Origin: a virus
DNA length: 64,000 nt
Virus record (IMG/VR): IMGVR_UViG_3300048925_000129
Direction: 5' to 3' (one strand)
Below the pieces are notes generated by a model. That model searched no databases. It was not told the origin of the DNA and saw only the letters and a list, made by a program, of their open reading frames with translations. Positions 3,692 to 49,486 of this stretch are shown piece by piece (position 1 is the stretch's first letter; the number at the start of each line of letters is the position of its first letter). Position numbers and translations under genes: made by a program.

Positions 3692-4042
3692 TTAATTTAA
3701 TGTTAGATTAAGATTTTTAAATAAAGACTTGTGTTGAGATCTTGAGATTGCTTCGATGGCTACTGCCGTCATTTGGTTTCCTATGTCAGGTTCCAGGAAC
3801 TTATGATACTTGATTTCCAAGTCATCCAGTTTATGGAGTATCCTTTCAATTTTGGATTCCGAAGCTTCAAGACAACACAGGTAGTTACTACCCATCTGCC
3901 ACTGCTTAAATTCATCGTTAAACTTGACTGCAAAATCAGCCAATGCATGTGCACTTTGCACAACTTTGTAACCTGGAGTTAAATCATCTCTGGTGATGAT
4001 TGTCATAAACTCGTTACCTGTCTAAATACCTGTCTTTGTCAT
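3692..4042 (-). CDS. Peptidyl-tRNA hydrolase type 2-like protein; probable start at 4042 with in-frame TAG at 4022-4024 (alternative start 4006)
   Basis: IITRDDLTPGYKVVQSAHALADF...FLEPDIGNQMTAVAI resembles phage PTH2-like proteins; upstream in-frame MTKTGI*TGNEF. Confidence 0.75.
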
Positions 4043-4061
4043 AATATAAAACTTTTGGTTG

Positions 4062-4134
4062 TTCTTTCAACGGGATTCGAACCCGTGACACACAGTTTTA
4101 GAGACTGCTGTTCTAACCACTGAACTATGAAAGA
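4062..4134 (-). tRNA. Amber suppressor tRNA (anticodon CTA)
   Basis: TCTTTCA/TGAAAGA acceptor, GCAGT-CTCTAAA-ACTGT anticodon arm, ACGGG-TTCGAAT-CCCGT T arm. Confidence 0.9.
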
Positions 4135-4140
4135 ATATTG

Positions 4141-4203
4141 CTTCGTATAAGGACTCGAACCTCACCTGCTAACTGCCGTGCTCCCAATTACACCATCACG
4201 AAA
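4141..4203 (-). pseudogene. tRNA-like element with collapsed anticodon arm
   Basis: TTCGT/ACGAA acceptor, D arm TGGTGTAATTGGGAGCAC, T arm AGG-TTCGAGT-CCT, only ~15 nt between D and T arms. Confidence 0.55.
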
Positions 4204-4296
4204 AACTTATCTCTCCCACACGGCAATGCAGTTAAAATAAGATTGATATAAGTTAAGGAGGCTTGCCGACCAACCTTATTTGCCATCAATTTTTTG

Positions 4297-4368
4297 TAGT
4301 CCATAGGGGAGTCGAACCCCTCTTCTTAGATCGAAAATCTAATGTCCTAACCGATAGACGAATGGACC
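4297..4368 (-). tRNA. tRNA-Glu(TTC)
   Basis: TTAGA-TTTTCGA-TCTAA arm, AGGGG-TTCGACT-CCCCT T arm. Confidence 0.9.
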
Positions 4369-4373
4369 AAGTA

Positions 4374-5194
4374 CAAGCTACAGGTCTTGTTAGTTAATAT
4401 TCCACACCGAGTGCCTCAACCAAGGCTTTGGGAATCGAACCCTCTTCGTCTTTTTTCCAAATAAAAATGTTTTAAACTTTGTATTTGCTGTGTGTAGCTT
4501 TATCAAATTACCGTTTGATGTTAAAATTCCAATTTTTAGCTTTGTTTAATTTGCTGTAGGTAATTTTGTCAGATTGCATACTAAACGTGTGTTTGATTAA
4601 AATTCAAGTGTTTGTTTAATTTGCTGTTAGCAATCTTTTCAGAATAGTATGTTTGAGGATTTGAACCCCTTGAACTGTTTATGAGACAATTGTTTTAACC
4701 AAATTTTTTAGATTTGCTGTAACTATTCTTATCAAGTTTCTATTGTTTTTGGACTATTGCTCTACCAACTGAGCTACTGAAATCCTAAGACTCCAGAAGG
4801 GACTCGAACCCTTGACCCACAGTGTTACATTCCTAAATTTGCTGTTAGAAACTTTATCAAAACTCATTTTTTGTTTTATACGTTGTACTAACCACTATAC
4901 TATCTCCCAAATTTTTCTAGATTAACTTTGTTGGGAGAGGAGGAGTCGAACCTCCGTCTACGGCTCTGAATGCATAACTTTGTATTTGCTGTATGAGTTT
5001 TTATATATTCAGGTTACTTGGGGACGATAAAAGGTCCCGTTAAGTTAAGATTTAAGTCATTCTAGGACTTTCCTATACAATTTTACTTCTCACATACAGG
5101 ACCCGAAGTGTAGAGATGTCTGTGCTTTTGCATTCTACAGTTTCCGTTATTTGAATCAATTATAGTTGTGTGTTGTATTTGCTGATAGTAACCT
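4374..5194 (-). ncRNA. Tandem array of 7 Y-RNA-like ncRNA units
   Basis: Units 4375-4500, 4505-4566, 4571-4636, 4641-4729, 4734-4854, 4859-5001, 5011-5194; each closed by a different 7-9 bp terminal stem with (A/U)CAGCAAAU just inside the 5' strand; adjacent to the TROVE-like gene. Confidence 0.8.
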
Positions 5195-5207
5195 TATAAT
5201 AACACTG

Positions 5208-5239
5208 CAAAGATATGAAAACTTTTTGAGATATGCAAA
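5208..5239 (-). promoter_or_regulatory. Promoter driving the ncRNA array
   Basis: TTTG-N20-TATCTTTG ending 14 nt before the first unit. Confidence 0.8.
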
Positions 5240-5276
5240 TCTTGCAGTGTTAAATTTATGTTAAAGGATTTTCACC

Positions 5277-6953
5277 TTATAGAACTTCTACTCTTTGAAT
5301 CAGTTCCTGAGACAATGCCTCTCTCACTAATTCGGCTGCTGTTTTAATCTTGGTGTTAGTCAAGAATCCTACAGTGGTAGCAGAGTACCCACTGAAGTAG
5401 AATACGTTTTGAACGTCTCCGTAAGTTTCGAACTTCTCTCCAGTCCCTCTACCATAGTATCCTGACTGTAGGTTCCAAAGAACGATTACGAAGCTATCTA
5501 CATACTCTTTAGAGAACCCAGCTCTTCTCAAAGTTTCCTTTGCAGTTTCAACGTTAGTTTTACCTAATTGGCTTGGGTTAAATTCACTATCAGATATACA
5601 TAGGATTCCCGATGGGAAATCTTGTTCTGAAACTCCACTCTGTTTCAACCTAACGAATAGGTTAATTACTGATTGGAAGTTAGTACCCCCAATGTAAGAA
5701 GAGTGATCATTCTTCCATTTGTCTACTGGAGTTTGACCTTTCCAGGTATGCATCTGAGCATCAGAGTTGAACTCGATCCATGCATTTGCAAACTTACCAG
5801 TTAAGAACTCAGAGAAGTAAAGGGCAAGTGCTTTACCAATATCGTAGCAGCTCATCTTAGTTCCAGTAGCTACACTACTCATTGAACCAGATGTATCTCT
5901 TACAACAATTAGATTAGTCTGTCCAGATTCACCACCTTTTTGAACAAGAGTAGTAAACTGCTTGTTAATGGTTTCAACTTCATTAGGAGTAACTGATCTT
6001 CTAGACTGCTTACCTAGACCTTCGAATAACTCGTGAACGAATCCAGTATACTTCACCTCCTTAGTTTCTGGAGCCTTGATCCACTCTGCATACTTGTCAG
6101 AAAGTTTCTGGTTAAATAGGAACTTACCTTGAACAAGTTTTGAAAGAGCTCTACCATGAACTTTGTTGAAGTCAATTCTATCAAATTGCTTTGTAGAGAT
6201 TAGCTTCTGCCATTCATGAGCTGTACCAGAAGTTTTTAACTTTCTGTACTGCTTGTAAGTAGAACCTGCATTTTCTTTAGTACCAAACACAAGTGAGCAG
6301 ATCCACTTTGCAATCATTGTATCAGCCTGAGCTTCTACAGTTTTACAAGATGATTTAGCCTTGATTTGTGGCAAATACTTCTTAATTAAATCACTGGTGT
6401 TTGAATTTTCTAATCCTGAAAGGATAAGTTCACCAAACTTTTTCCAGTTTAATTTTCTTCCGTTCCAACCGTGATGAACAAGGTCATAAGAAAGCATCGT
6501 GAAGATATCTTTCCATGATCCTGCTGAGATCATCAATCCTACGTTAGCCCAGAAAGTTTTTTCATCCTTGAAGTGTAACCATAAGAATCTCATGATACCT
6601 TCATGTCTTAGCTCACCTCCTTTTTGTGATTCGGCAGTCATAGTACCATCTTGATACATTGTCTGTCTTGAGATCATTCTTAAGAAGATAGAGAAAGCTA
6701 CTGCATCCCACTTATCATCTGCCCATAACATTTCGGCATCTCTGGTGATATCCTGGAAAGATCTTGGTGCTTTGAATTTACCCATAACTCCGAACTGGTC
6801 AACTAATGTTGAACCTGTTGAGGAATATTTTAGGGCTCCGTTCCCTGATAGTGTTTCTGCTCCTTTCTTTAAAGATGCATTAACGAATGCAGATGTTGCT
6901 TGTGTGTTTTTTGGAGTTACCTCGAATAAACTTTTTTGTTTGCTGTCGAACAT
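5277..6953 (-). CDS. TROVE-like/vWA protein (DUF2828 family, Ro60-related)
   Basis: N-terminal SGNGALKYSSTG..LVDQF, GSWKD, KKYLP, YRKL motifs; C-terminal vWA MIDAS DTSGS, GGTNF, ISDSEF, IVLWN. Confidence 0.8.
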   Translation of the reverse strand: MFDSKQKSLFEVTPKNTQATSAFVNASLKKGAETLSGNGALKYSSTGSTLVDQFGVMGKFKAPRSFQDITRDAEMLWADDKWDAVAFSIFLRMISRQTMYQDGTMTAESQKGGELRHEGIMRFLWLHFKDEKTFWANVGLMISAGSWKDIFTMLSYDLVHHGWNGRKLNWKKFGELILSGLENSNTSDLIKKYLPQIKAKSSCKTVEAQADTMIAKWICSLVFGTKENAGSTYKQYRKLKTSGTAHEWQKLISTKQFDRIDFNKVHGRALSKLVQGKFLFNQKLSDKYAEWIKAPETKEVKYTGFVHELFEGLGKQSRRSVTPNEVETINKQFTTLVQKGGESGQTNLIVVRDTSGSMSSVATGTKMSCYDIGKALALYFSEFLTGKFANAWIEFNSDAQMHTWKGQTPVDKWKNDHSSYIGGTNFQSVINLFVRLKQSGVSEQDFPSGILCISDSEFNPSQLGKTNVETAKETLRRAGFSKEYVDSFVIVLWNLQSGYYGRGTGEKFETYGDVQNVFYFSGYSATTVGFLTNTKIKTAAELVREALSQELIQRVEVL

Positions 6954-6982
6954 CTTATTATGATTTTTGGTTAATTTTTGAT

Positions 6983-7298: not shown

Positions 7299-7330
7299 CA
7301 AAGATACAAAAAGTTTTCTTAATATGCAAA
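7299..7330 (-). promoter_or_regulatory. Bacteroidota-type promoter for the TROVE operon
   Basis: TTTG-N20-TATCTTTG. Confidence 0.75.
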
Positions 7331-7498
7331 TTTATTTTGTTAAAGTTTTGTTAAAGTTTTTCGATTATAGAGAAGACAATAAAAATTATGTTCTCAACTG
7401 GTATGTTATAAATCCATCTCATAGTATGTAAAATAAAAAATGTTGCTAATATAAGACTTCACATACTAACAACATTCAATCTACCTTCTTGTAGTTTG

Positions 7499-7570
7499 TG
7501 TGATAACGGGACTCGAACCCTGACTACCAATTTCACAGGTTGGCATGCTAACCTTTACATCATTATCACC
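7499..7570 (-). tRNA. tRNA-His(GTG)
   Basis: CCAAC-CTGTGAA-ATTGG arm, T-loop TTCGAGT. Confidence 0.85.
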
Positions 7571-7627
7571 ATATAAAGTATCTTTTATTTAAGGGGTTGA
7601 AAGATACAAAACTATCCCTAATTTTAT

Positions 7628-8020
7628 TTAGTAGTTCACTACTCTTACTGGTTTACCAAGATTTTTCATGAGGTCTATCATATTTTTTGTTCCTCTACTC
7701 TTGCCATCCCAAAAAGCTATAAGTACATCTCCTACTTCGGACATCTCTTCATTCCTAATTGGACCAGCAGCATTCCCATACATTTTCCAGTCGGCTGGCA
7801 TAGGAATAACATTGTGATTACTCTCAGCAGCATAAAGCTCTCCAAGTCCATCTGCTCCAAAGACATTAATACCATCTGATGTGGTAAAAGTCTTGGTTCC
7901 CGTGGAGCATCTTCCTGAAACTATTTCGATGTCTCTATGATTCCTAAGGAAATTATCACATTTTGTTTTAACGAGACGATAATCATTCAGATCTCTGCCT
8001 CCTGCTATTATGACTTTCAT
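7628..8020 (-). CDS. SLOG-family protein (DUF2493/YspA-like)
   Basis: KVIIAGGRD, IVSG, GADGLGE, AAGPIRNEEM, AFWDGKSRGTKNMI. Confidence 0.85.
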   Translation of the reverse strand: MKVIIAGGRDLNDYRLVKTKCDNFLRNHRDIEIVSGRCSTGTKTFTTSDGINVFGADGLGELYAAESNHNVIPMPADWKMYGNAAGPIRNEEMSEVGDVLIAFWDGKSRGTKNMIDLMKNLGKPVRVVNY

Positions 8021-8442
8021 TAGGCTTCAGCAATTGCTTGCTTGATCTCATCAGCTTTATTAATACCTTTACACTCCTTGTTGATCATACCAAATAGTTT
8101 ACCTTCGTGGATGCCTGGATTATCTTCTTTAGTTTGTTTAACCAAAGACACTAATTCAGAATAGGTTAAGGCCTGAGGTAAGTACGACTCAAGAACTTTT
8201 AATTCTGATTCTTCCTTAACAGCAAGATCTATTCTTTTAGAAAGAGTGTAGGCATCAATAGATTGATTCCTTTTCTTAATTTCCCTAGAGATAAGTTTCG
8301 TAACTTCATCTTCAGTTAAATCTCTTCTTAAAGCTATTTTCTCGTTGTCTACTACACTTATTAAAAGTGACAGGGTTGTTTTTGCTACTATATCTTTTGC
8401 CTTTAAAGCTTTTACGTAGTCTTGTCTGATCTTTGATTCCAT
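8020..8442 (-). CDS. YqeY/GatB-domain tRNA-binding protein
   Basis: KALKAKD...EIKKRNQSIDAY..SKRIDLAVKEESELKVLESYLPQ. Confidence 0.85.
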   Translation of the reverse strand: MESKIRQDYVKALKAKDIVAKTTLSLLISVVDNEKIALRRDLTEDEVTKLISREIKKRNQSIDAYTLSKRIDLAVKEESELKVLESYLPQALTYSELVSLVKQTKEDNPGIHEGKLFGMINKECKGINKADEIKQAIAEA

Positions 8443-8469
8443 TTTACTTTTGTTTTAATTATTGATTAG

Positions 8470-8540
8470 TGCAGGTAGGGAGAATCGAACTCCCGACTAA
8501 ACATTGGAAGTGTCCCGTGATACCACTTCACCACACCTGC
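8470..8540 (-). tRNA. tRNA-Gly(TCC); 5' half overlaps the HNH gene 3' end
   Basis: GCAGGTG/TACCTGC acceptor, loop CTTCCAA, GGGAG-TTCGATT-CTCCC T arm. Confidence 0.85.
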
Positions 8541-8958
8541 CTATTCTTTCCTGATAATGTAAGTCCCTATGACAGTTGGAACATAAAACCTCACATTTCT
8601 CTATTTCTTTTAATGCTCTAGATTTAGAACCACTCTTAAACAGAGCTCCAACTTCAGTATCCTTCTCGTCTGGATTAATATGGTGAAAATCTAAGACCCA
8701 CCATCTATCCTCTGGACATCTATTACATTTTAAATTTTTCTTTATTTCGAAAAATTCTTCCATAGAAGTTTGTCTATAAGCTTTAGATTTAGAAATATAT
8801 TTAGCTTTGTTAGCTTCATAATGTTTCTTTCTATATTCTTTCTGACATTCTCTACATTGCCACTGTAGAATTGTTTTTGTTTTCAATTTTTTAGTAGCAA
8901 AAAACTCTTCTGTCTCTGGTAATTCTTTTTTACAAGAACCACATATCTTCGTACACAT
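8497..8958 (-). CDS. HNH homing-type endonuclease with N-terminal Zn finger
   Basis: CGSC...CREC; CNRC...LDFHHINP.EK...EIEKCEVLCSNCHRDLH; start revised to MCTKIC, downstream of promoter 8974-9005. Confidence 0.85.
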   Translation of the reverse strand: MCTKICGSCKKELPETEEFFATKKLKTKTILQWQCRECQKEYRKKHYEANKAKYISKSKAYRQTSMEEFFEIKKNLKCNRCPEDRWWVLDFHHINPDEKDTEVGALFKSGSKSRALKEIEKCEVLCSNCHRDLHYQERIGRCGEVVSRDTSNV

Positions 8959-8973
8959 ATTTATTAATTTATA

Positions 8974-9005
8974 CAAAGATACAAAAAAGGTATCGAACTT
9001 CCAAA
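8974..9005 (-). promoter_or_regulatory. Promoter of the HNH cassette
   Basis: TTTG-N20-TATCTTTG. Confidence 0.7.
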
Positions 9006-9022
9006 CACATAAAATTAATTAT

Positions 9023-9065
9023 TAGGCTTGGAAGGCTAGAGTATTAACCACTATACGATACCTGC
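9023..9065 (-). pseudogene. Orphan 5' half of tRNA-Gly(TCC)
   Basis: GCAGGTA TCGTATAGTGGTTAATAC T CTAGC CTTCCAA GC, then AT-rich sequence with no T arm. Confidence 0.8.
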
Positions 9066-9160
9066 AATTATAATAGACCATCATACTCTCACTAATGTGA
9101 TTCGTGCACCTGATATACCTTGGGTATATAAGTAGATAGTTTTAGGGGCAACTATTATTG

Positions 9161-9234
9161 TCTCCAGTATAGGATTTGAACCTATGACAACTTCCTTATC
9201 AGAGAAGTGCTCTACCAGACTGAGCTAACTGGAG
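9161..9234 (-). tRNA. tRNA-Ile(GAT)
   Basis: CTCCAGT/ACTGGAG acceptor, loop CTGATAA. Confidence 0.9.
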
Positions 9235-9259
9235 TTAAACCAGGTTTCCCTGGTATGTT

Positions 9260-9496
9260 TTATTTTTTATAGTGAATGTAAGATTTCACTCCTTTCATGG
9301 CTGCATCTTCTACAAGCCTCAAAGCTAAAGTTTTCAAACTCAAAATTTCAGAAGCTTCGTCTGGATTTAAATCTGCTGTCACATTATCATTAATGTAGTC
9401 GAAAAGCTCAATAGCTCTTTGTTTAATTCCATCAATTACTCCTTCACCTGAAGGGTTGAAATCACCAATTCTTTTTTGTCCTAAAGTTTTTTCCAT
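9260..9496 (-). CDS. Acb2/Tad1-like helical-hairpin anti-defence sponge candidate
   Basis: TLGQKRI..FNPSG...IDGIKQRAIEL...LALRLVEDAAM.GVK pattern. Confidence 0.55.
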   Translation of the reverse strand: MEKTLGQKRIGDFNPSGEGVIDGIKQRAIELFDYINDNVTADLNPDEASEILSLKTLALRLVEDAAMKGVKSYIHYKK

Positions 9497-10257
9497 TATA
9501 TATCTTTTCTTGTTACAATAAAATCTTCTATTGAGTTATCCTCTTCTAAAATTAGCTTACCAAATCCTGGAGCTATAATAAAATGTGTCCTATCATTTTG
9601 GTCTTCAGCAGGAATAATATCTGAAAAACCTGATTTTTTTGAAATTTCCATTTGGTCTTTAGTAAGTAGATAGATAAGTTCCATTAACTTCAAGTGGTTA
9701 GTTTTAACTTCCATTACTCTTTCTGTCCAAGGAATATGTCTTCCAGTATAATACACAAAGTGAATATGATTCCTTAATGTACCTCTTATATCAGTTTCAT
9801 CTGGATAAGGTTCTGTATTAAATCCATGTGAATGCCACATGTATTCACCTTTATCATTGGTTTCTTTATACTCAACATATAATTTACCCGTTTCACCAGC
9901 ATAGTACCTTTTCAAAACTTCTTCATGTTGTTTAGAAACATCAAATTGTACAGTATCAAATAAGTTTCCAGTAGAAGAATATTCTCCTAATACAAAACCA
10001 ATTCTTATCCATTTATCTGTACTTTGGATATCTTCTTTTGCTAAATAGACATCAGGATCAGTTGTTACTAACACAACTGCTTTAGCATCTTCAGTGACTA
10101 TAAATTGAACACCGTACATGGCATCATCTGTATAAACAGTATTTGGATCACTGAATATTCCTTTGAATATCTCTATTGGAATTCTAGATCCATCAATACC
10201 TAAGTAAATACTTGGGTCTCTTCCTTCTTTTTCTTTGTAAAATCTTTCTCGTATCAT
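9496..10257 (-). CDS. Hypothetical protein
   Basis: 253-aa ORF coupled to both neighbours. Confidence 0.75.
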   Translation of the reverse strand: MIRERFYKEKEGRDPSIYLGIDGSRIPIEIFKGIFSDPNTVYTDDAMYGVQFIVTEDAKAVVLVTTDPDVYLAKEDIQSTDKWIRIGFVLGEYSSTGNLFDTVQFDVSKQHEEVLKRYYAGETGKLYVEYKETNDKGEYMWHSHGFNTEPYPDETDIRGTLRNHIHFVYYTGRHIPWTERVMEVKTNHLKLMELIYLLTKDQMEISKKSGFSDIIPAEDQNDRTHFIIAPGFGKLILEEDNSIEDFIVTRKDI

Positions 10258-10463
10258 TTGTTAAAAATTTCATCTGAAAATAAATCAAGAATCCTATCTG
10301 GTTCTCCCCAATCGTGACCTCCATATTTGTGCACTTTAAACTCTTCAAAAGAGGCTATATTATAACCCTCTTGACCATGAATTACTTTTAGGTAAATAAA
10401 TCTTAATCTATACCACCAGTAAACCCTGAATTTATCATACTCATCTAATTCCTGAAATTTCAT
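10254..10463 (-). CDS. Hypothetical protein
   Basis: 69-aa ORF immediately after promoter-like motif 10468-10499. Confidence 0.6.
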   Translation of the reverse strand: MKFQELDEYDKFRVYWWYRLRFIYLKVIHGQEGYNIASFEEFKVHKYGGHDWGEPDRILDLFSDEIFNK

Positions 10464-10521
10464 TTTACAAATTTAAGAAACTTTTTTGACATGTGCAAGT
10501 TTTTAACAAACTTTAACATTG

Positions 10522-10593
10522 TAGACCTACTAGGATTCGAACCTAGATACCCTGAGTCAAAGTCAGGTGTACTAACCGTTGTACGATAGGTCT
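10522..10593 (-). tRNA. tRNA-Gln(TTG)
   Basis: CCTGA-CTTTGAC-TCAGG arm. Confidence 0.9.
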
Positions 10594-10596
10594 GTT

Positions 10597-10670
10597 TGGA
10601 GCCCAGAACAGGATTCGAACCTGTGTACCTAGTTTTGCAGACTAGTGTCTAACCACTCGACCACCTGGGC
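10597..10670 (-). tRNA. tRNA-Cys(GCA)
   Basis: CTAGT-CTGCAAA-ACTAG arm, U73, encoded CCA. Confidence 0.9.
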
Positions 10671-10676
10671 AGCTTG

Positions 10677-10748
10677 AGCCTCTATCAGGAATCGAACCCG
10701 AATCTCAAGATTACAAATCATGTATAATAGCCGTTATACTACAGAGGC
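10677..10748 (-). tRNA. tRNA-Thr(TGT)
   Basis: GCCTCTG/TAGAGGC acceptor, loop TTTGTAA. Confidence 0.88.
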
Positions 10749-10752
10749 AAAT

Positions 10753-10793
10753 AAAAAATCCCTTGCAAAGTCGGTTGAGGATTCACAAGGGAT
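10753..10793 (-). terminator. Attenuator terminator B, directly upstream of tRNA-Thr
   Basis: ATCCCTTGTGAA/TTTGCAAGGGAT 12-bp stem plus T-tract. Confidence 0.85.
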
Positions 10794-10825
10794 AGAAATT
10801 TATAAAAAATAAATTTGTGTATTGT

Positions 10826-10915
10826 CTATTCATAAATGACATCAGACAAAATCATCCCTGTTGAGTGCCCCTGGCAGCCAATAGTTATCTCGATATGTTG
10901 TCTAGTTGTTGTCAT
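10826..10915 (-). CDS. Leader peptide B (29 aa): MTTTRQHIEITIGCQGHSTGMILSDVIYE*
   Basis: A-rich start context, lies between promoter and terminator; first 17 codons are only M,T,R,Q,H,I,E,G,C. Confidence 0.8.
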   Translation of the reverse strand: MTTTRQHIEITIGCQGHSTGMILSDVIYE

Positions 10916-10935
10916 TGTTTAAATTTTTACTTCTG

Positions 10936-10967
10936 CAAATATACAAAATGTTTTTGACATATGCAAA
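10936..10967 (-). promoter_or_regulatory. Promoter for leader B / tRNA block B
   Basis: TTTG-N20-TATATTTG. Confidence 0.8.
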
Positions 10968-10998
10968 TTTCTAAAAGAAATTATTAGTTAAAGTTTTG

Positions 10999-11220
10999 TT
11001 AAAAATAATAATACCAGTATTCATCGTGGAATAGCTGCATTTCTTGTTTTAAATTAATCTGCTTTTGGTGCTTATACATCCTATTGCCCTCACAAATGTT
11101 GCATCCACCATTATGTTCACAGAATTTAGATGGTCTTGTTCTGCTTCCATCTCTTACTGTTTTTAAGTGGTTAACACCCATCCATCTATGCTGAGATGGT
11201 TTTCTATAAGTTCTACTCAT
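10999..11220 (-). CDS. Small Cys/His-rich hypothetical protein
   Basis: MSRTYRK...CEHNGGCNICEGNR. Confidence 0.7.
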   Translation of the reverse strand: MSRTYRKPSQHRWMGVNHLKTVRDGSRTRPSKFCEHNGGCNICEGNRMYKHQKQINLKQEMQLFHDEYWYYYF

Positions 11221-11236
11221 AAAAATAATTTAAGTG

Positions 11237-11320
11237 AGGAAGACAGAGAGCACGATTCCCAGACCCTGAGGTCCCATTTGTTTAGCAAACAAAGTCTATA
11301 CCCCGATAGATTTAACTTCC
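11237..11320 (-). tRNA. tRNA-Ser(GCT), somewhat degenerate
   Basis: TTTGT-TTGCTAA-ACAAA arm, long variable arm, atypical T-loop. Confidence 0.7.
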
Positions 11321-11328
11321 ATAATATG

Positions 11329-11409
11329 AGGAGGAAGTGGGACTCGAACTCTCAGACCCAGAGGGTCACAGTTTTCAAGACTGCTGCAATACCATTCTGC
11401 CAATCCTCC
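11329..11409 (-). tRNA. tRNA-Ser(TGA), chimeric-looking T stem
   Basis: GCAGT-CTTGAAA-ACTGT arm, GACCC/GGGTC variable arm, mismatched T stem GAGAG/CCCAC. Confidence 0.8.
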
Positions 11410-11415
11410 GAATTG

Positions 11416-11772
11416 TTATTTTACAAAGATAGCCGTCTTACCAATAACTTCGTCTATATTTAGGTAGACAATTCTATCTTCTTTTTGTATATAGATGGCT
11501 AAAATGTCAAACTCATCAACTTCTATTTTATAGATAGTATTAGTATTTTTGTTTGATCTAATTCTTCTTAGCTCTATGTTATATTTGCCCAAACTATTTG
11601 GATCTTTGATAGTTGATTTAACAGATACTCTTTTAGACTCTCCATCTTTATAGATGAACAAATCAAAAGGTGCTTTACCACTCACTTGATTAAAAATGTG
11701 ATAACCTTTACTAGCTAAATCAGCCATTACTTTAATCTCACCTAATTGAGAATACATTGTTTTATTATCCAT
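11416..11772 (-). CDS. PD-(D/E)XK homing-type endonuclease (I-Ssp6803I / PDDEXK_5-like)
   Basis: GEIKVMADL..KGY.IF....GKAPFDLFIYKDG..KRVSVKST...FDILAIY. Confidence 0.75.
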   Translation of the reverse strand: MDNKTMYSQLGEIKVMADLASKGYHIFNQVSGKAPFDLFIYKDGESKRVSVKSTIKDPNSLGKYNIELRRIRSNKNTNTIYKIEVDEFDILAIYIQKEDRIVYLNIDEVIGKTAIFVK

Positions 11773-11799
11773 AGCTCTTCATCCAGCCAGATTCCCTCC
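11773..11799 (-). pseudogene. Probable orphan 5' fragment of a tRNA-Ser
   Basis: GGAGGGAATCTGGCTGGATGAAGAGCT directly abuts the endonuclease ATG; GGAGGGA pairs with the 3' acceptor strand TTCCTCC of the downstream tRNA-Ser. Confidence 0.55.
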
Positions 11800-11856
11800 A
11801 ATTAAAAGCCCCAGAAATTGTGCATGCAAGCAAAGGCATCTGGGGGATTGATATTT

Positions 11857-12369
11857 TTATTTTAGCAAGTACTGCTCCCAATCTTTAGGAATTGTACCTA
11901 GATGTTTTATAAACATCAAGTAATGTGGTCTTTTAGGATTTGGATGTTCCTTACCCCACTCTTCTATTGTTAAGTCATTTTTTTCCGAGTTACACGGTTT
12001 ACATGCAGTAACTAAGTTGTCCCAAGTGTCTTTTCCACCTTTCGATTTAGGAATAACGTGGTCGATAGTCATTGCTCTTATTTCGTCTTCTCCACAATAC
12101 ACACAAGTGTAGTTATCTCTTTTGAAAACATTGTCCCTGTTACAAGGAACTTTGTGGATATCCAGGTTAATGAACCTTGGAACCCTGATAACTGATGGTC
12201 TGAAGATCTCTAAATCTGGATTAACCAAACCAAACTTCTCTGGGTGTTCATGCAGGATGTCTGCATTACCCTTAAGAGAAACTACATAAGCTCTTTCAGA
12301 TGTCACAATTTGTCTGGGTAAGTACTGTGAATCTAACACCAAGCACTTACGAAAATCTACTTTTTTCAT
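11857..12369 (-). CDS. HNH endonuclease (McrA-like); start revised to MKKVDF
   Basis: CLVLDSQY, NVFKRDNYTCVYCG, TIDHVIPKSKGG..TWDNLVTACKPCNSEK; track extension overlaps tRNA-Leu. Confidence 0.85.
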   Translation of the reverse strand: MKKVDFRKCLVLDSQYLPRQIVTSERAYVVSLKGNADILHEHPEKFGLVNPDLEIFRPSVIRVPRFINLDIHKVPCNRDNVFKRDNYTCVYCGEDEIRAMTIDHVIPKSKGGKDTWDNLVTACKPCNSEKNDLTIEEWGKEHPNPKRPHYLMFIKHLGTIPKDWEQYLLK

Positions 12370-12389
12370 TGTTACACTTTTTTGATTAG

Positions 12390-12470
12390 TACTGATAGTA
12401 GGACTCGAACCTACACCCCTTTCGGGAACAGTTTCTAAGACTGCCGTGTCTACCATTCCACCATACCAGC
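12390..12470 (-). tRNA. tRNA-Leu(TAG)
   Basis: GCAGT-CTTAGAA-ACTGT arm, long variable arm. Confidence 0.9.
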
Positions 12471-12586
12471 ATTTCCCCTAATTGCTTTTTGATACCAACC
12501 ACTGTCAGGCTATGAACCTTCATAAGTCAAGGGGATCGAACCCTTAGTTCATCAATATCCTACTACTTCAATTTGGATAGGATTTG

Positions 12587-12666
12587 TACTCCCACTGGGA
12601 CTCGAACCCAGACCCCGAAGGATAAGATTTTAAGTCTTACGTGTCTACCAATTCCACCATGAGAGC
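12587..12666 (-). tRNA. tRNA-Leu(TAA)
   Basis: TAAGA-CTTAAAA-TCTTA arm. Confidence 0.9.
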
Positions 12667-12672
12667 ATTTTG

Positions 12673-12745
12673 TGGACCGACAGGGGATCGAACCCTGGTT
12701 TAAAGTTTGCAAAACTTTGGTTTTAGCCAATTAAACTACCAGCCC
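12673..12745 (-). tRNA. tRNA-Ala(TGC)
   Basis: Loop TTTGCAA, G3:U70 pair present. Confidence 0.9.
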
Positions 12746-12747
12746 AA

Positions 12748-13023
12748 TTATTTATTATCTTTGTTTCTTCCAATGTGATACCCATCACAGAAGACACATT
12801 TGTAAGTGCTAAAGTGCACTCCTTTCTTTTTCCCCATACTAATTGCTGACTTCAAAGCAGTCTCCTTGGTATTATACATAACCTTAGGCTTACCTGTATC
12901 TGCCCTCTGATGAGAATTTTTATGGAACATTCCCCAGGCATTTCTGGTAATAAAGAAATTTTTAATGAATCTCTTGAGTGGAAGCTGATCCTTCAATGCT
13001 ATTACTATGTTCTTTAGTTTCAT
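12748..13023 (-). CDS. Small Zn-ribbon protein
   Basis: YKCVFCDGYHIG. Confidence 0.7.
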   Translation of the reverse strand: MKLKNIVIALKDQLPLKRFIKNFFITRNAWGMFHKNSHQRADTGKPKVMYNTKETALKSAISMGKKKGVHFSTYKCVFCDGYHIGRNKDNK

Positions 13024-13231
13024 ACTCTCCTTTTATAATTCTTACTATGTCCTTTGGTGATACTACTGTGCATCGTTTCATTACATCTTGAATTCTACCT
13101 TTAGGTATATCGTAATGATTTTTATGAAACCAGCAAATGTTGATCCCAAGGTCTCTAGCCATTTTATGCAGATTCTGTTTAGAATATGGCAAGCAGACTA
13201 GATGTCTTTTGTTATCACAAATATATTTCAT
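12962..13231 (-). CDS. DUF4031-like protein
   Basis: HLV......LHKMARDLGI...WFH..HYDIP. Confidence 0.65.
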   Translation of the reverse strand: MKYICDNKRHLVCLPYSKQNLHKMARDLGINICWFHKNHYDIPKGRIQDVMKRCTVVSPKDIVRIIKGEYETKEHSNSIEGSASTQEIH

Positions 13232-13233
13232 TG

Positions 13234-13304
13234 TACCTCGTAAAGGAATCGAACCTTTTCCACTTGTATGTAAGACAAGGAAGCTACCGTTACATCAACG
13301 AGGC
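13234..13304 (-). tRNA. tRNA-Val(TAC)
   Basis: CTTGT-CTTACAT-ACAAG arm. Confidence 0.88.
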
Positions 13305-13365
13305 ATACAACTATGTGAGTCCTAACTAAACTTATCTCACTTTTACTGGAACCCGTAGGTAGTTT

Positions 13366-13563
13366 TTAAATGTTGTTATTCCAGGTTCTATATCCTGTGG
13401 AAGGGTCAGTATCGACTTTCTTTCCAACAAATGTTATCTCCCAGAATTCTTCACCCAACTCTAGTAGTTGAACAAAATTTCCTTTCTTGGCATGTTTAGA
13501 ATCAATCCAGCATTGTGTGAATTCTTCTTTGCCTTTTTTCTTAAATGTGCATTGTGCCCACAT
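13366..13563 (-). CDS. Hypothetical protein
   Basis: 65-aa ORF with A-rich start between tRNAs. Confidence 0.65.
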   Translation of the reverse strand: MWAQCTFKKKGKEEFTQCWIDSKHAKKGNFVQLLELGEEFWEITFVGKKVDTDPSTGYRTWNNNI

Positions 13564-13580
13564 AACTTTAATTTTTACTG

Positions 13581-13654
13581 TGCCCCCAGAAGGACTCGAA
13601 CCTTCAGTCTACATCTTAAAAGGATGTTGCTTTAACCAATTCAGCTATAGGAGC
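13581..13654 (-). tRNA. tRNA-Lys(TTT)
   Basis: ACATC-CTTTTAA-GATGT arm. Confidence 0.9.
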
Positions 13655-13766
13655 TTTTCTTTCGATTTAGAGCAGAAATCGAACCCGAAACATATACTGC
13701 CTAGATTTCTTAATCCCCGAAAACGACCTTGCCTCAAGGCTTACAGCTTTAACTGATGGATTTTTG

Positions 13767-13838
13767 TCGGGTAGACAGGACTCGAACCTGCATCCTCTTG
13801 CTTCCAATGCAAGTAATCGACCATTGATATACTACCCG
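13767..13838 (-). tRNA. tRNA-Pro(TGG)
   Basis: CGGGTAG/CTACCCG acceptor, loop ATTGGAA. Confidence 0.9.
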
Positions 13839-13845
13839 TAATATG

Positions 13846-13927
13846 TGAGGCATGTAGGATTCGAACCTACTCAGCAATTGCAACTGTTTTACAGACAGTC
13901 TCAGCTCTCCAACTCTGACGATACCCC
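13846..13927 (-). tRNA. tRNA-Tyr(GTA)
   Basis: ACTGT-CTGTAAA-ACAGT arm, long variable region. Confidence 0.9.
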
Positions 13928-13935
13928 GTTTAAAT

Positions 13936-14013
13936 TGGTGGGTCCACTGGGAATCGAACCCAGTCCTACAGTTTTTCAGACTATCGTGCAGACCTTAATT
14001 ACACCTTAGACCC
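13936..14013 (-). tRNA. tRNA-Phe(GAA)
   Basis: ATAGT-CTGAAAA-ACTGT arm, encoded CCA. Confidence 0.9.
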
Positions 14014-14065
14014 AATCGTACAGTTACGTTTCCAAATAGGAAAGAGGCTTGACTGTACATCATTG

Positions 14066-14138
14066 AGGGAGAAGTGGGATTCGAACCCACACAAATCGAC
14101 TTAACAGGTCGGTGCTCTACCATTACAGCTATTCTCCC
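14066..14138 (-). tRNA. tRNA-Asn(GTT)
   Basis: CCGAC-CTGTTAA-GTCGA arm. Confidence 0.9.
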
Positions 14139-14151
14139 GAATAAAAATTTG

Positions 14152-14223
14152 CACGTCCCACAGGATTCGAACCCGTACCAAAAGTTTTGGAGACTCCTAT
14201 GCTACCATTAACACCAGAGACGT
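14152..14223 (-). tRNA. tRNA-Trp(CCA)
   Basis: GGAGT-CTCCAAA-ACTTT arm, G73. Confidence 0.88.
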
Positions 14224-14520: not shown

Positions 14521-14621
14521 CAAAGATATGAAATTAATTTCACATATGCAAATTTAATTGGTTAAATTTTTGTTAAATTTTTAGTAATGCAAAGATAGGA
14601 AATAAAATCCAAAAAAGCAAA
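14521..14621 (-). promoter_or_regulatory. Two tandem promoters for leader A / tRNA block A
   Basis: TTTG-N20-TATCTTTG at 14521-14552 and 14590-14621. Confidence 0.8.
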
Positions 14622-15912: not shown

Positions 15913-15998
15913 GTTGTAAACTTTTTATTAATTAGTTATTTATTAGATTGCAAATGTACAACTTTATTTTGACATATGCAAATACATAAAAGTTAATT

Positions 15999-49435: not shown

Positions 49436-49486
49436 TTTGCATATGTCAAAAATAATTCCTATATTTGCAACGTTTAAATAAATTAT

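Follow-up and report, generated by a model that had tools for sequence, protein, structure and literature searches.

A Ro60-like phage protein gene beside an array of handle-bearing RNAs with tRNA-part cargos: a predicted ribonucleoprotein system of the Ro60-Y RNA kind

Together with its Y RNAs, Ro60 forms a classic RNA-surveillance particle, whose roles in bacteria and phages are unclear. Y RNAs adjoining Ro60 genes are well established, including the tRNA-mimicking YrlA and examples from phages (Chen et al. 2014, PMC4201824), and the Ro60 protein of the Thermus phage phiLo binds two adjacent Y-like RNAs (Yrl1/Yrl2) and recruits PNPase (PMC12135203). Here we describe a locus that points to a second large Ro60-like family with a partner-RNA class of its own. 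The locus lies in the viral record IMGVR_UViG_3300048925_000129 of IMG/VR, a stretch of 64,000 nucleotides (nt) that is called the window in this text and whose coordinates are given as plus-strand positions. In this region the window has its genes on the minus strand only, and downstream of a gene encoding a Ro60-like protein, on the same strand, there are seven small RNA units, each composed of a constant handle and an exchangeable cargo (Table 1). As judged from sequence and predicted structure, gene and units appear to be the two components of a ribonucleoprotein system of the same kind as Ro60 and its Y RNAs, with a class of partner RNA that was found in no paper or RNA catalogue. It is likely, in our view, that the two components assemble into a particle of the Ro60 type, whose protein would bind both the handle of each unit and the handle copy present in its own mRNA.

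The array begins 83 nt past the gene, and the original prediction, which had described seven back-to-back units of 62-184 nt, each with a different terminal stem, proved correct in every detail. Every unit is closed by a perfect terminal stem of 7-9 base pairs (bp), whose sequence differs from unit to unit and which is present in the minimum-free-energy fold of all seven units; in the case of U1, an orthologous stem is retained in the related loci L001/L002. In all seven units without exception, the motif CAGCAAAU has its start at exactly 10 nt from that of the unit, and it is preceded by A in six of them and by U in U1, while the 3' strand is followed by G in all seven and by GA in six, so that both the (A/U)-prefixed motif inside the 5' strand and the trailing GA in six of seven units, as noted earlier, were reproduced. 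The units are separated by spacers of 4 nt (GAnA), or of 9 nt after U1. Copies of CAGCAAAU are concentrated in the array, with seven in about 700 nt of the array strand versus six in the remaining 64 kb, both strands included. The handle is, then, a covarying stem of 7-9 bp that joins the ends of the unit, plus a single-stranded ACAGCAAAU beside the 5' strand; the 3' strand is followed by a G. The idea that the junction (C/U)UGAnAA is hammerhead-like was dismissed by eye, given that the essential G of CUGANGA is absent.

Stem searches within a 300-nt range can yield 7-bp partners by luck, and for this reason the reality of the handle was assessed by a fixed-register test, with no stem search, that asks if the 5' strand pairs with the bases ending exactly 5 nt before the next unit. 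In this register, which corresponds to the 4-nt spacer, a stem of at least 7 bp was found in 62 of 129 consecutive motif pairs from related loci, and shifting the register by 1-7 nt left such stems in just 0-5 of the 129 pairs; a chance origin of the stems is thus excluded. An alignment of 57 short units (A3) was also compiled, and, with the reservation that its members were chosen for having a stem, which bears on the covariation counts, 95.2% of its cells pair, versus 62.6% in shuffled and 30-39% in slid versions, and all 8 stem pairs vary on both sides. The logo of 190 distinct units reads A-G-R-N3-C-N2-A-CAGCAAA-U … A-N2-G-N3-Y-C-U, with GAUA before the unit and G-A-U-A after it. The covariance model built from the 57 short units of A3, named R1, has matches in the window that are confined to the array and the gene start.

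The association of handle RNAs with the gene was seen from both sides. On the protein side, 80 viral loci encoding homologues with 44-93% identity were surveyed with a simple unit detector, and most loci in the range of 53-93% identity carry units on the strand of the gene, usually directly downstream and reaching up to 11 units in the largest array, the opposite strand being almost devoid of them. On the RNA side, viral contigs were scanned with a DNA pattern of the unit junction, without regard to the protein, and the scan returned mostly single chance matches together with at least seven true array loci among the matches listed; six of these seven are in records with a homologue beside the array, and the seventh is at a contig end. 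In three complete relatives of 125-160 kb (G001-G003), R1 matches at the gene start and in the array and nowhere else. The pairing also extends to bacteria, since R1 gave 33 matches in 49 bacterial genome-assembly loci, 33 of 33 on the strand of the gene, including Saprospiraceae and Planctomycetota loci in which the protein is 28-30% identical; on a complete 8-Mb Saprospiraceae chromosome, units with CAGCAAU after the gene can be recognized by eye. Among cultured phages, the Escherichia phage garuso (Felixounavirus, MN850566.1) has two unannotated handle RNAs (L253:4360-4423 and 4521-4587) in gaps between annotated tRNA genes, just past a homologous gene annotated as 'vWFA protein'. In clusters of the Felix O1 type, the gaps between tRNA genes are probably occupied. 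A covariance-model scan of the flanks of homologous genes, which had been proposed with the original prediction, ties the handle to the gene across phages and bacteria.

Beyond the handle, tRNA genes are frequent near homologues and always co-oriented with the gene, as holds for all 249 of those in viral loci and all 62 of those in genome loci. No conserved protein-coding neighbour was found across loci. RtcB is absent from the three related complete genomes, and an RNA-ligase-family gene (PF09414, 38.9 bits) is present in one of the three, at G001:C1:41044-41673 in the 93%-identical relative, about 23 kb from the Ro60-like gene. A subgroup of homologues, composed of L145-L154, L171 and L178 from one metagenome plus G005, is devoid of a downstream array, and in one such genome R1 finds single dispersed units 3-11 kb upstream instead.

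The mRNA of the Ro60-like gene has a handle copy on its own start codon, which is the best non-training R1 match in the window. Its 5' strand, AGAUGUU (6955-6949), includes the AUG, CAGCAAA (6945-6939) comes next, with the same 10-nt offset as in the units, and AACAUCU (6897-6891), the 3' strand, is inside the coding sequence and followed by G. Of 44 distinct homologue starts, 22 have a stem of 7 bp or more whose first base is precisely 2 nt ahead of the AUG, while other offsets give 0-2, sub-registers aside. These stems occur in 22 of the 31 starts in which AG precedes the AUG versus 0 of the 13 in which it does not, and they are also linked to the AGCAA motif. The 3' strand is always RRCAUCU, in the same frame and at a variable distance, followed by G in 21 of 22 cases, and it is always encoded by ACA/GCA-UCU codons. 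Residues 8-21 of the protein have a pLDDT below 50 and are thus predicted to be disordered, and a fixed codon choice in such a region points to selection on the RNA. R1 also matches the element in the whole genomes G001-G003, and the restriction of the handle to the array and the start codon in these three complete phage genomes suggests that the copy is an autoregulatory operator. An operator function is probable on these grounds, and among the indirect indications that the handle is read by the protein, this copy is the strongest. In the subgroup of L145-L154, L171, L178 and G005, the start-codon element is a variant, GAAGCAAAA, whose 3' strand is GCAUCU with no G following.

The protein itself is a divergent Ro60 paralogue of the DUF2828/DUF7788 family. 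Its open reading frame is real, and the fold comparison with Ro60 that had been proposed earlier did find the Ro60 fold (TROVE plus vWA), spanning the full length of the protein as a ring of helical repeats followed by a vWA domain. The MIDAS residues D353, S355 and S357 are invariant across 56 homologues, in a region that aligns with the MIDAS region of Ro60. Sequence searches assign the protein to Pfam PF25043 (DUF7788; E 1e-11, above its cut-off) and to PHROG 850 (E 7e-37, residues 30-550). PF11443 (DUF2828) is recorded on several homologues of 63-67% identity, the window protein itself being without a PF11443 match. The original designation of a 'DUF2828 TROVE-vWA protein' thus holds for the fold and has to be amended for the Pfam families, where TROVE is unmatched and DUF7788 takes the place of a direct DUF2828 match. 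A search of PDB sequences with the single protein as query gave no match, a PDB profile search found Ro60 weakly, over the vWA domain, and the ESM Atlas returned only the protein's own family.

This Ro60-like family is very large, with about 1,900 clusters at 50% identity and homologues in 574 cultured-phage records, and a full-text literature search for DUF2828 found no functional study. No homologue forms longer than 977 amino acids (aa) were found, which is weak evidence on fusions. Homologues with about 50% identity to the Saprospiraceae proteins are present in four amoebozoan transcriptomes (Rhizamoeba, Dracoamoeba, Pellita and Endostelium; P0245, P0276, P0284 and P0330), and they may be genuine genes or contamination from bacterial prey. 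The homologue from Rhizamoeba, of 843 aa, has an extra 2H-phosphoesterase / 2'-5' RNA-ligase-like domain (PF13563).

The cargos are parts of tRNAs, as several alignments and loop counts indicate. U3 matches the YrlA model of Rfam (RF02553) with 39.4 bits and E 2.9e-6, below the gathering score of 69, and a unit from a relative reaches 35.6 bits, the other window units being unmatched by this model. The order of modules in U3 (T arm, loop-closed acceptor-like stem, D arm) is of the YrlA type, and U2 has the same order. The 5' part of U3 resembles the suppressor tRNA of the phage in an alignment, and the alignment of the interior of U4 with the tRNA-Met encoded by the phage itself (2357-2432) runs from D loop through T arm. 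Among 137 distinct units, 87 hairpin loops of 7 nt were counted versus 13.5 in shuffled interiors, and strict anticodon-like loops (Y-U-NNN-R-A) numbered 19 versus 0.15 in shuffles; about 38 of the hairpin loops are T loops, and the commonest 'anticodons' displayed are UUU/CUU (Lys), UGU (Thr) and CAU (Met). The 'swappable effector domains' of the original prediction are thus exchangeable modules indeed, and the loops and alignments identify them as tRNA-derived parts. Distant Saprospiraceae units share a conserved cargo that is not tRNA-like (…GGAAAGAUGGAGAAAUC…UCGCCAG…), seen at L227:5225-5310, L239:5270-5345 and L251:5330-5410 and 5515-5590.

The claim that the array is promoter-driven holds at the level of motif and no further, by virtue of a Bacteroidota-type promoter match just before U1. 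The pattern TTTG-N19-21-TAnnTTTG has 15 matches in the window versus 1.7 expected, one of them, at 7330-7299(-), upstream of the Ro60-like gene, and a scan for sigma-70 promoters stayed at background level. Public sequencing runs yielded no usable RNA evidence, three runs from wastewater that bear an RNA-Seq label being probably DNA. The 15 matches share a longer phage-specific consensus (TTTGCATATGTCAAAAA … TATCTTTG), for example at 7299-7330, 10936-10967, 14521-14552 and 15951-15982 (-) and at 49436-49467 (+), and this common extended consensus suggests that one promoter class is used genome-wide.

Table 1. Features of the Ro60-like locus in the window, listed 5' to 3' along the minus strand.
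Feature	Position	Strand	Description
Handle copy in the gene's mRNA	6891..6955	-	R1 match 6887-6959, 34.2 bits, E 1.7e-5
Ro60-like protein gene	5277..6953	-	558 aa; DUF7788/DUF2828 family, PHROG 850 'RNA-binding protein'; helical-repeat ring and vWA with MIDAS
Bacteroidota-type promoter match TTTG-N20-TAtcTTTG	5239-5208	-	13 nt upstream of U1; motif level
Unit 1 (U1)	5194-5011	-	184 nt; handle and long cargo without recognisable tRNA part
Unit 2 (U2)	5001-4859	-	143 nt; handle and permuted tRNA-like cargo, T arm before D-arm-like hairpin
Unit 3 (U3)	4854-4734	-	121 nt; handle and YrlA-type cargo (T arm, loop-closed acceptor-like stem, D arm)
Unit 4 (U4)	4729-4641	-	89 nt; tRNA-Met-like body (D loop, CAU anticodon arm, T arm), handle replacing acceptor stem
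Unit 5 (U5)	4636-4571	-	66 nt; handle and hairpin, 7-nt anticodon-like loop AUUUUAA (UUU, Lys-like)
Unit 6 (U6)	4566-4505	-	62 nt; handle and small hairpin, loop AUUGGAA (D-loop-like GG); R1 61.4 bits, training sequence
Unit 7 (U7)	4500-4375	-	126 nt; handle and T-arm cargo; 6 nt from tRNA-Glu
tRNA-Glu	4296..4368	-	ARAGORN and Rfam; directly downstream of U7

The array is followed by tRNA genes. The tRNA-Glu is probably co-transcribed with the array, and cleavage by RNase P at this tRNA would release the 3' side of U7. Farther downstream on the same strand, between tRNA-Glu and the next tRNA-like element, a hairpin at about 4240-4290 has a terminal stem followed by GGCAAAU in place of CAGCAAAU; it has no covariance-model R1 match and its fold is no better than those of shuffles, and it may be a decayed eighth unit. 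The tRNA-like element itself, at about 4140-4215 (-), has an acceptor-like stem, a D-loop-like GG and a good T arm and is too short for an anticodon arm; it was called neither by ARAGORN nor by Rfam. Next come a tRNA with anticodon CUA at 4061-4134 (-), an amber suppressor labelled 'Pyl' by ARAGORN, and, just downstream of it, a gene for a Pth2-like peptidyl-tRNA hydrolase at 3692-4006 (-) (Pfam E 1.5e-4).

A working model of the system can be put together from these elements. The promoter just past the gene would drive a polycistronic transcript of seven units that runs into the tRNA genes, and the transcript would be processed into units, each consisting of the constant handle and one exchangeable cargo, be it a T/D-arm elbow, a tRNA-Met body without its acceptor end, or an anticodon stem-loop mimic. 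The ring protein would bind the handle, thereby stabilising and presenting each RNA, and by binding the handle copy around its own start codon it would limit its own translation. The cargos made of tRNA parts could decoy or tether tRNA-recognising host factors, such as defence nucleases that cut anticodon loops. The purpose of such a system is less certain than the particle; the likeliest is protection of the phage's translation supply during infection, with decoys or tethers made of tRNA parts in the service of counter-defence.

Other explanations of the locus can be weighed against this particle. The handle could be a processing or stability signal for a host or phage ribonuclease that cuts the transcript of the tRNA cluster, with the copy at the gene start merely setting the 5' end of a short-leader mRNA. 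The exact 4-nt spacers, the units that run into tRNA genes and the unfailing co-orientation of tRNA genes with the Ro60-like gene would all fit such a signal, and a cleavage site could be bordered by the conserved G that follows the 3' strand and the conserved A that precedes the 5' strand. However, the window has 16 other tRNA genes (7498-14223) without a handle, the handle is confined to the Ro-like locus in complete phage genomes, and the pairing of RNA and gene is still seen at 28-30% protein identity as well as on a bacterial chromosome; moreover, a pure cleavage signal would not need the combination of a conserved 7-nt single-stranded motif and a covarying stem beside one particular gene. 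We regard this explanation as improbable. The idea that the units have no function and are tRNA pseudogenes in decay, or remnants left by recombination between tRNA genes, deserves far less credence still, even though the origin of the cargos from tRNA genes of this phage is recognisable and the units are in a tRNA cluster, since it is contradicted by the invariant motif at a fixed offset, the covarying stems, the strict strand bias, and the conservation in phages, bacteria and a cultured coliphage.

It may also be that the protein and the RNAs are independent of each other, the protein being a stand-alone counter-defence factor (for example, against Ppl-type defence) and the units being free tRNA-mimic decoys or regulators that share the operon. 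This possibility gains from the Ro60-like protein gp130 of Bas63 (Felixounavirus), which is active against the Ppl defence and remains so after transfer into T7: by itself, apparently without phage RNAs, it restored T7 plaquing on a Ppl strain (PhageMaP preprint, 10.1101/2024.10.10.617714). Some homologue loci, in addition, have no array nearby. On the other hand, independent parts would hardly leave a handle copy at the start codon in 22 of the 31 AG-preceded starts and in 0 of the 13 others, RNA and gene stay paired across very distant lineages in which no other neighbour is conserved, and Ro60 homologues, one of them from a phage, do bind adjacent RNAs (PMC4201824, PMC12135203). Independence is thus given about the same low probability as the ribonuclease signal, and a particle in which the protein binds the handle is preferred.

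Several points nonetheless weigh against this particle. The Pfam scan of the protein, extended to E 10, returned DUF7788 and two chance matches only, leaving TROVE (PF05731) unmatched, and the handle, a short variable stem plus single-stranded ACAGCAA, is unlike the conserved bulged helix or the CGAA-containing loop of Y RNAs. The stem-based choice of units for A3 is to be counted here too. A substantial minority of the homologue loci, with L145-L154 and L183-L203 as examples, had no array detected within 3.5 kb of the gene, and a relaxed search for an alternative motif in the array-less loci found none. The operator was found in half of the distinct gene starts only, and its 5' strand cannot covary because it is fixed by the start codon. 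The rescue of T7 by gp130 alone means that the protein may act without its RNAs, and the proposed decoy role has cargo shape as its sole basis.

The handle is simple and searchable, and the units that it marks lack annotation at present; located as they are among phage tRNA genes, they can be mistaken for tRNAs or pseudo-tRNAs. A system built in this way would combine modular tRNA-derived cargos with a probable feedback operator on the mRNA of its own protein. Given that the family includes Felix O1-like coliphages, one member of which is reported to defeat a defence, the system is testable in E. coli.

With respect to known systems, autogenous translational operators that mimic the RNA target of a protein include the operator of E. 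coli thrS, those of ribosomal-protein operons, T4 gp32 and RegA, and the MS2 coat protein. Like them, the start-codon element is a copy of the presumed RNA target that overlaps the protein's own start codon and is conserved in relatives. It differs from them in that part of the window element is inside the coding sequence, and both binding and repression are predictions in the present case.

The closest counterpart of the whole arrangement is Ro60/Rsr with its Y RNAs, where the protein holds Y RNA on its outer surface and the 3' ends of RNAs in its central hole. Both systems have a protein with a ring of helical repeats and a vWA/MIDAS domain, encoded beside small RNAs whose ends are paired in a stem and whose interior can mimic a tRNA, as in U3, and phage-encoded cases of the known system exist. 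In contrast, the window protein belongs to another sequence family (DUF7788/DUF2828, with no TROVE Pfam match), and its RNAs form one tight array of seven units, or up to 11 in relatives, instead of the 1-4 RNAs of Ro60-Y RNA systems. Bare anticodon-loop mimics and a tRNA body among the cargos, as well as the handle copy on the gene's own start codon, also set it apart. The term 'Y-RNA-like', used in the original prediction, is therefore apt as regards the adjacency to the gene and the sub-threshold YrlA match of U3, on which cmscan misaligns the YrlA lower stem, and less apt as regards the handle, which is not the canonical Ro60-binding helix and is closest to the handle of Dictyostelium Class I RNAs.

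Within the protein family, the gene of Bas63 gp130 is directly upstream of the tRNA genes of that phage, and the authors speculate that some of these 'tRNAs' are Y RNAs, the preprint naming no RNA partners (10.1101/2024.10.10.617714). The Felixounavirus proteins are sequence homologues of the window protein, with about 25% identity over half of the protein; this comparison was made with Felixounavirus homologues, to which gp130 is linked by description. The hosts also differ, being E. coli for Bas63 and of Bacteroidota type for the window phage.

On the RNA side, the nearest likeness is found in a eukaryote. The Class I RNAs of dictyostelids are abundant, developmentally regulated RNAs of about 60 nt with a variable interior, functionally unexplained and reported to be unique to Dictyostelia; they are individually transcribed from DUSE promoters and bind the RRM protein Rnp1A (Kjellin et al. 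2021, PMC7919456). The Rfam model of these RNAs (RF01414, Dicty_Class_I_RNA) scores 37.3 bits at L129:7527-7584, 35.9 at L251:5120-5167, 28.8 on U5 and 26.7 on the mRNA element, all below its gathering score of 41.5, and its consensus has in common with the handle the terminal stem, CAGCAA directly after the 5' strand, and a 3' CUG. Class I RNAs resemble the units in their size of about 60 nt, low G+C content, short stem joining the ends, unpaired motif ending in ACAGCAA, variable interior, many different copies per genome, and 3' end CUG; they differ in that the window RNAs are viral and arrayed beside a Ro60-like gene, no link to a Ro60-like protein having been reported for Class I RNAs. Tentatively, and with less than even confidence, the handle RNAs may be the viral and bacterial counterparts of the Class I RNAs, in one ancient family of phages, bacteria and amoebae in which a DUF2828-family Ro60 paralogue reads the stem-plus-ACAGCAA handle and which in phages would have become a library of tRNA-part decoys or tethers that blunt tRNA-directed defence. 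In any case, a near-identical handle beside a Ro60-like gene provides a concrete lead on a class of RNAs that had been thought unique to the social amoebae.

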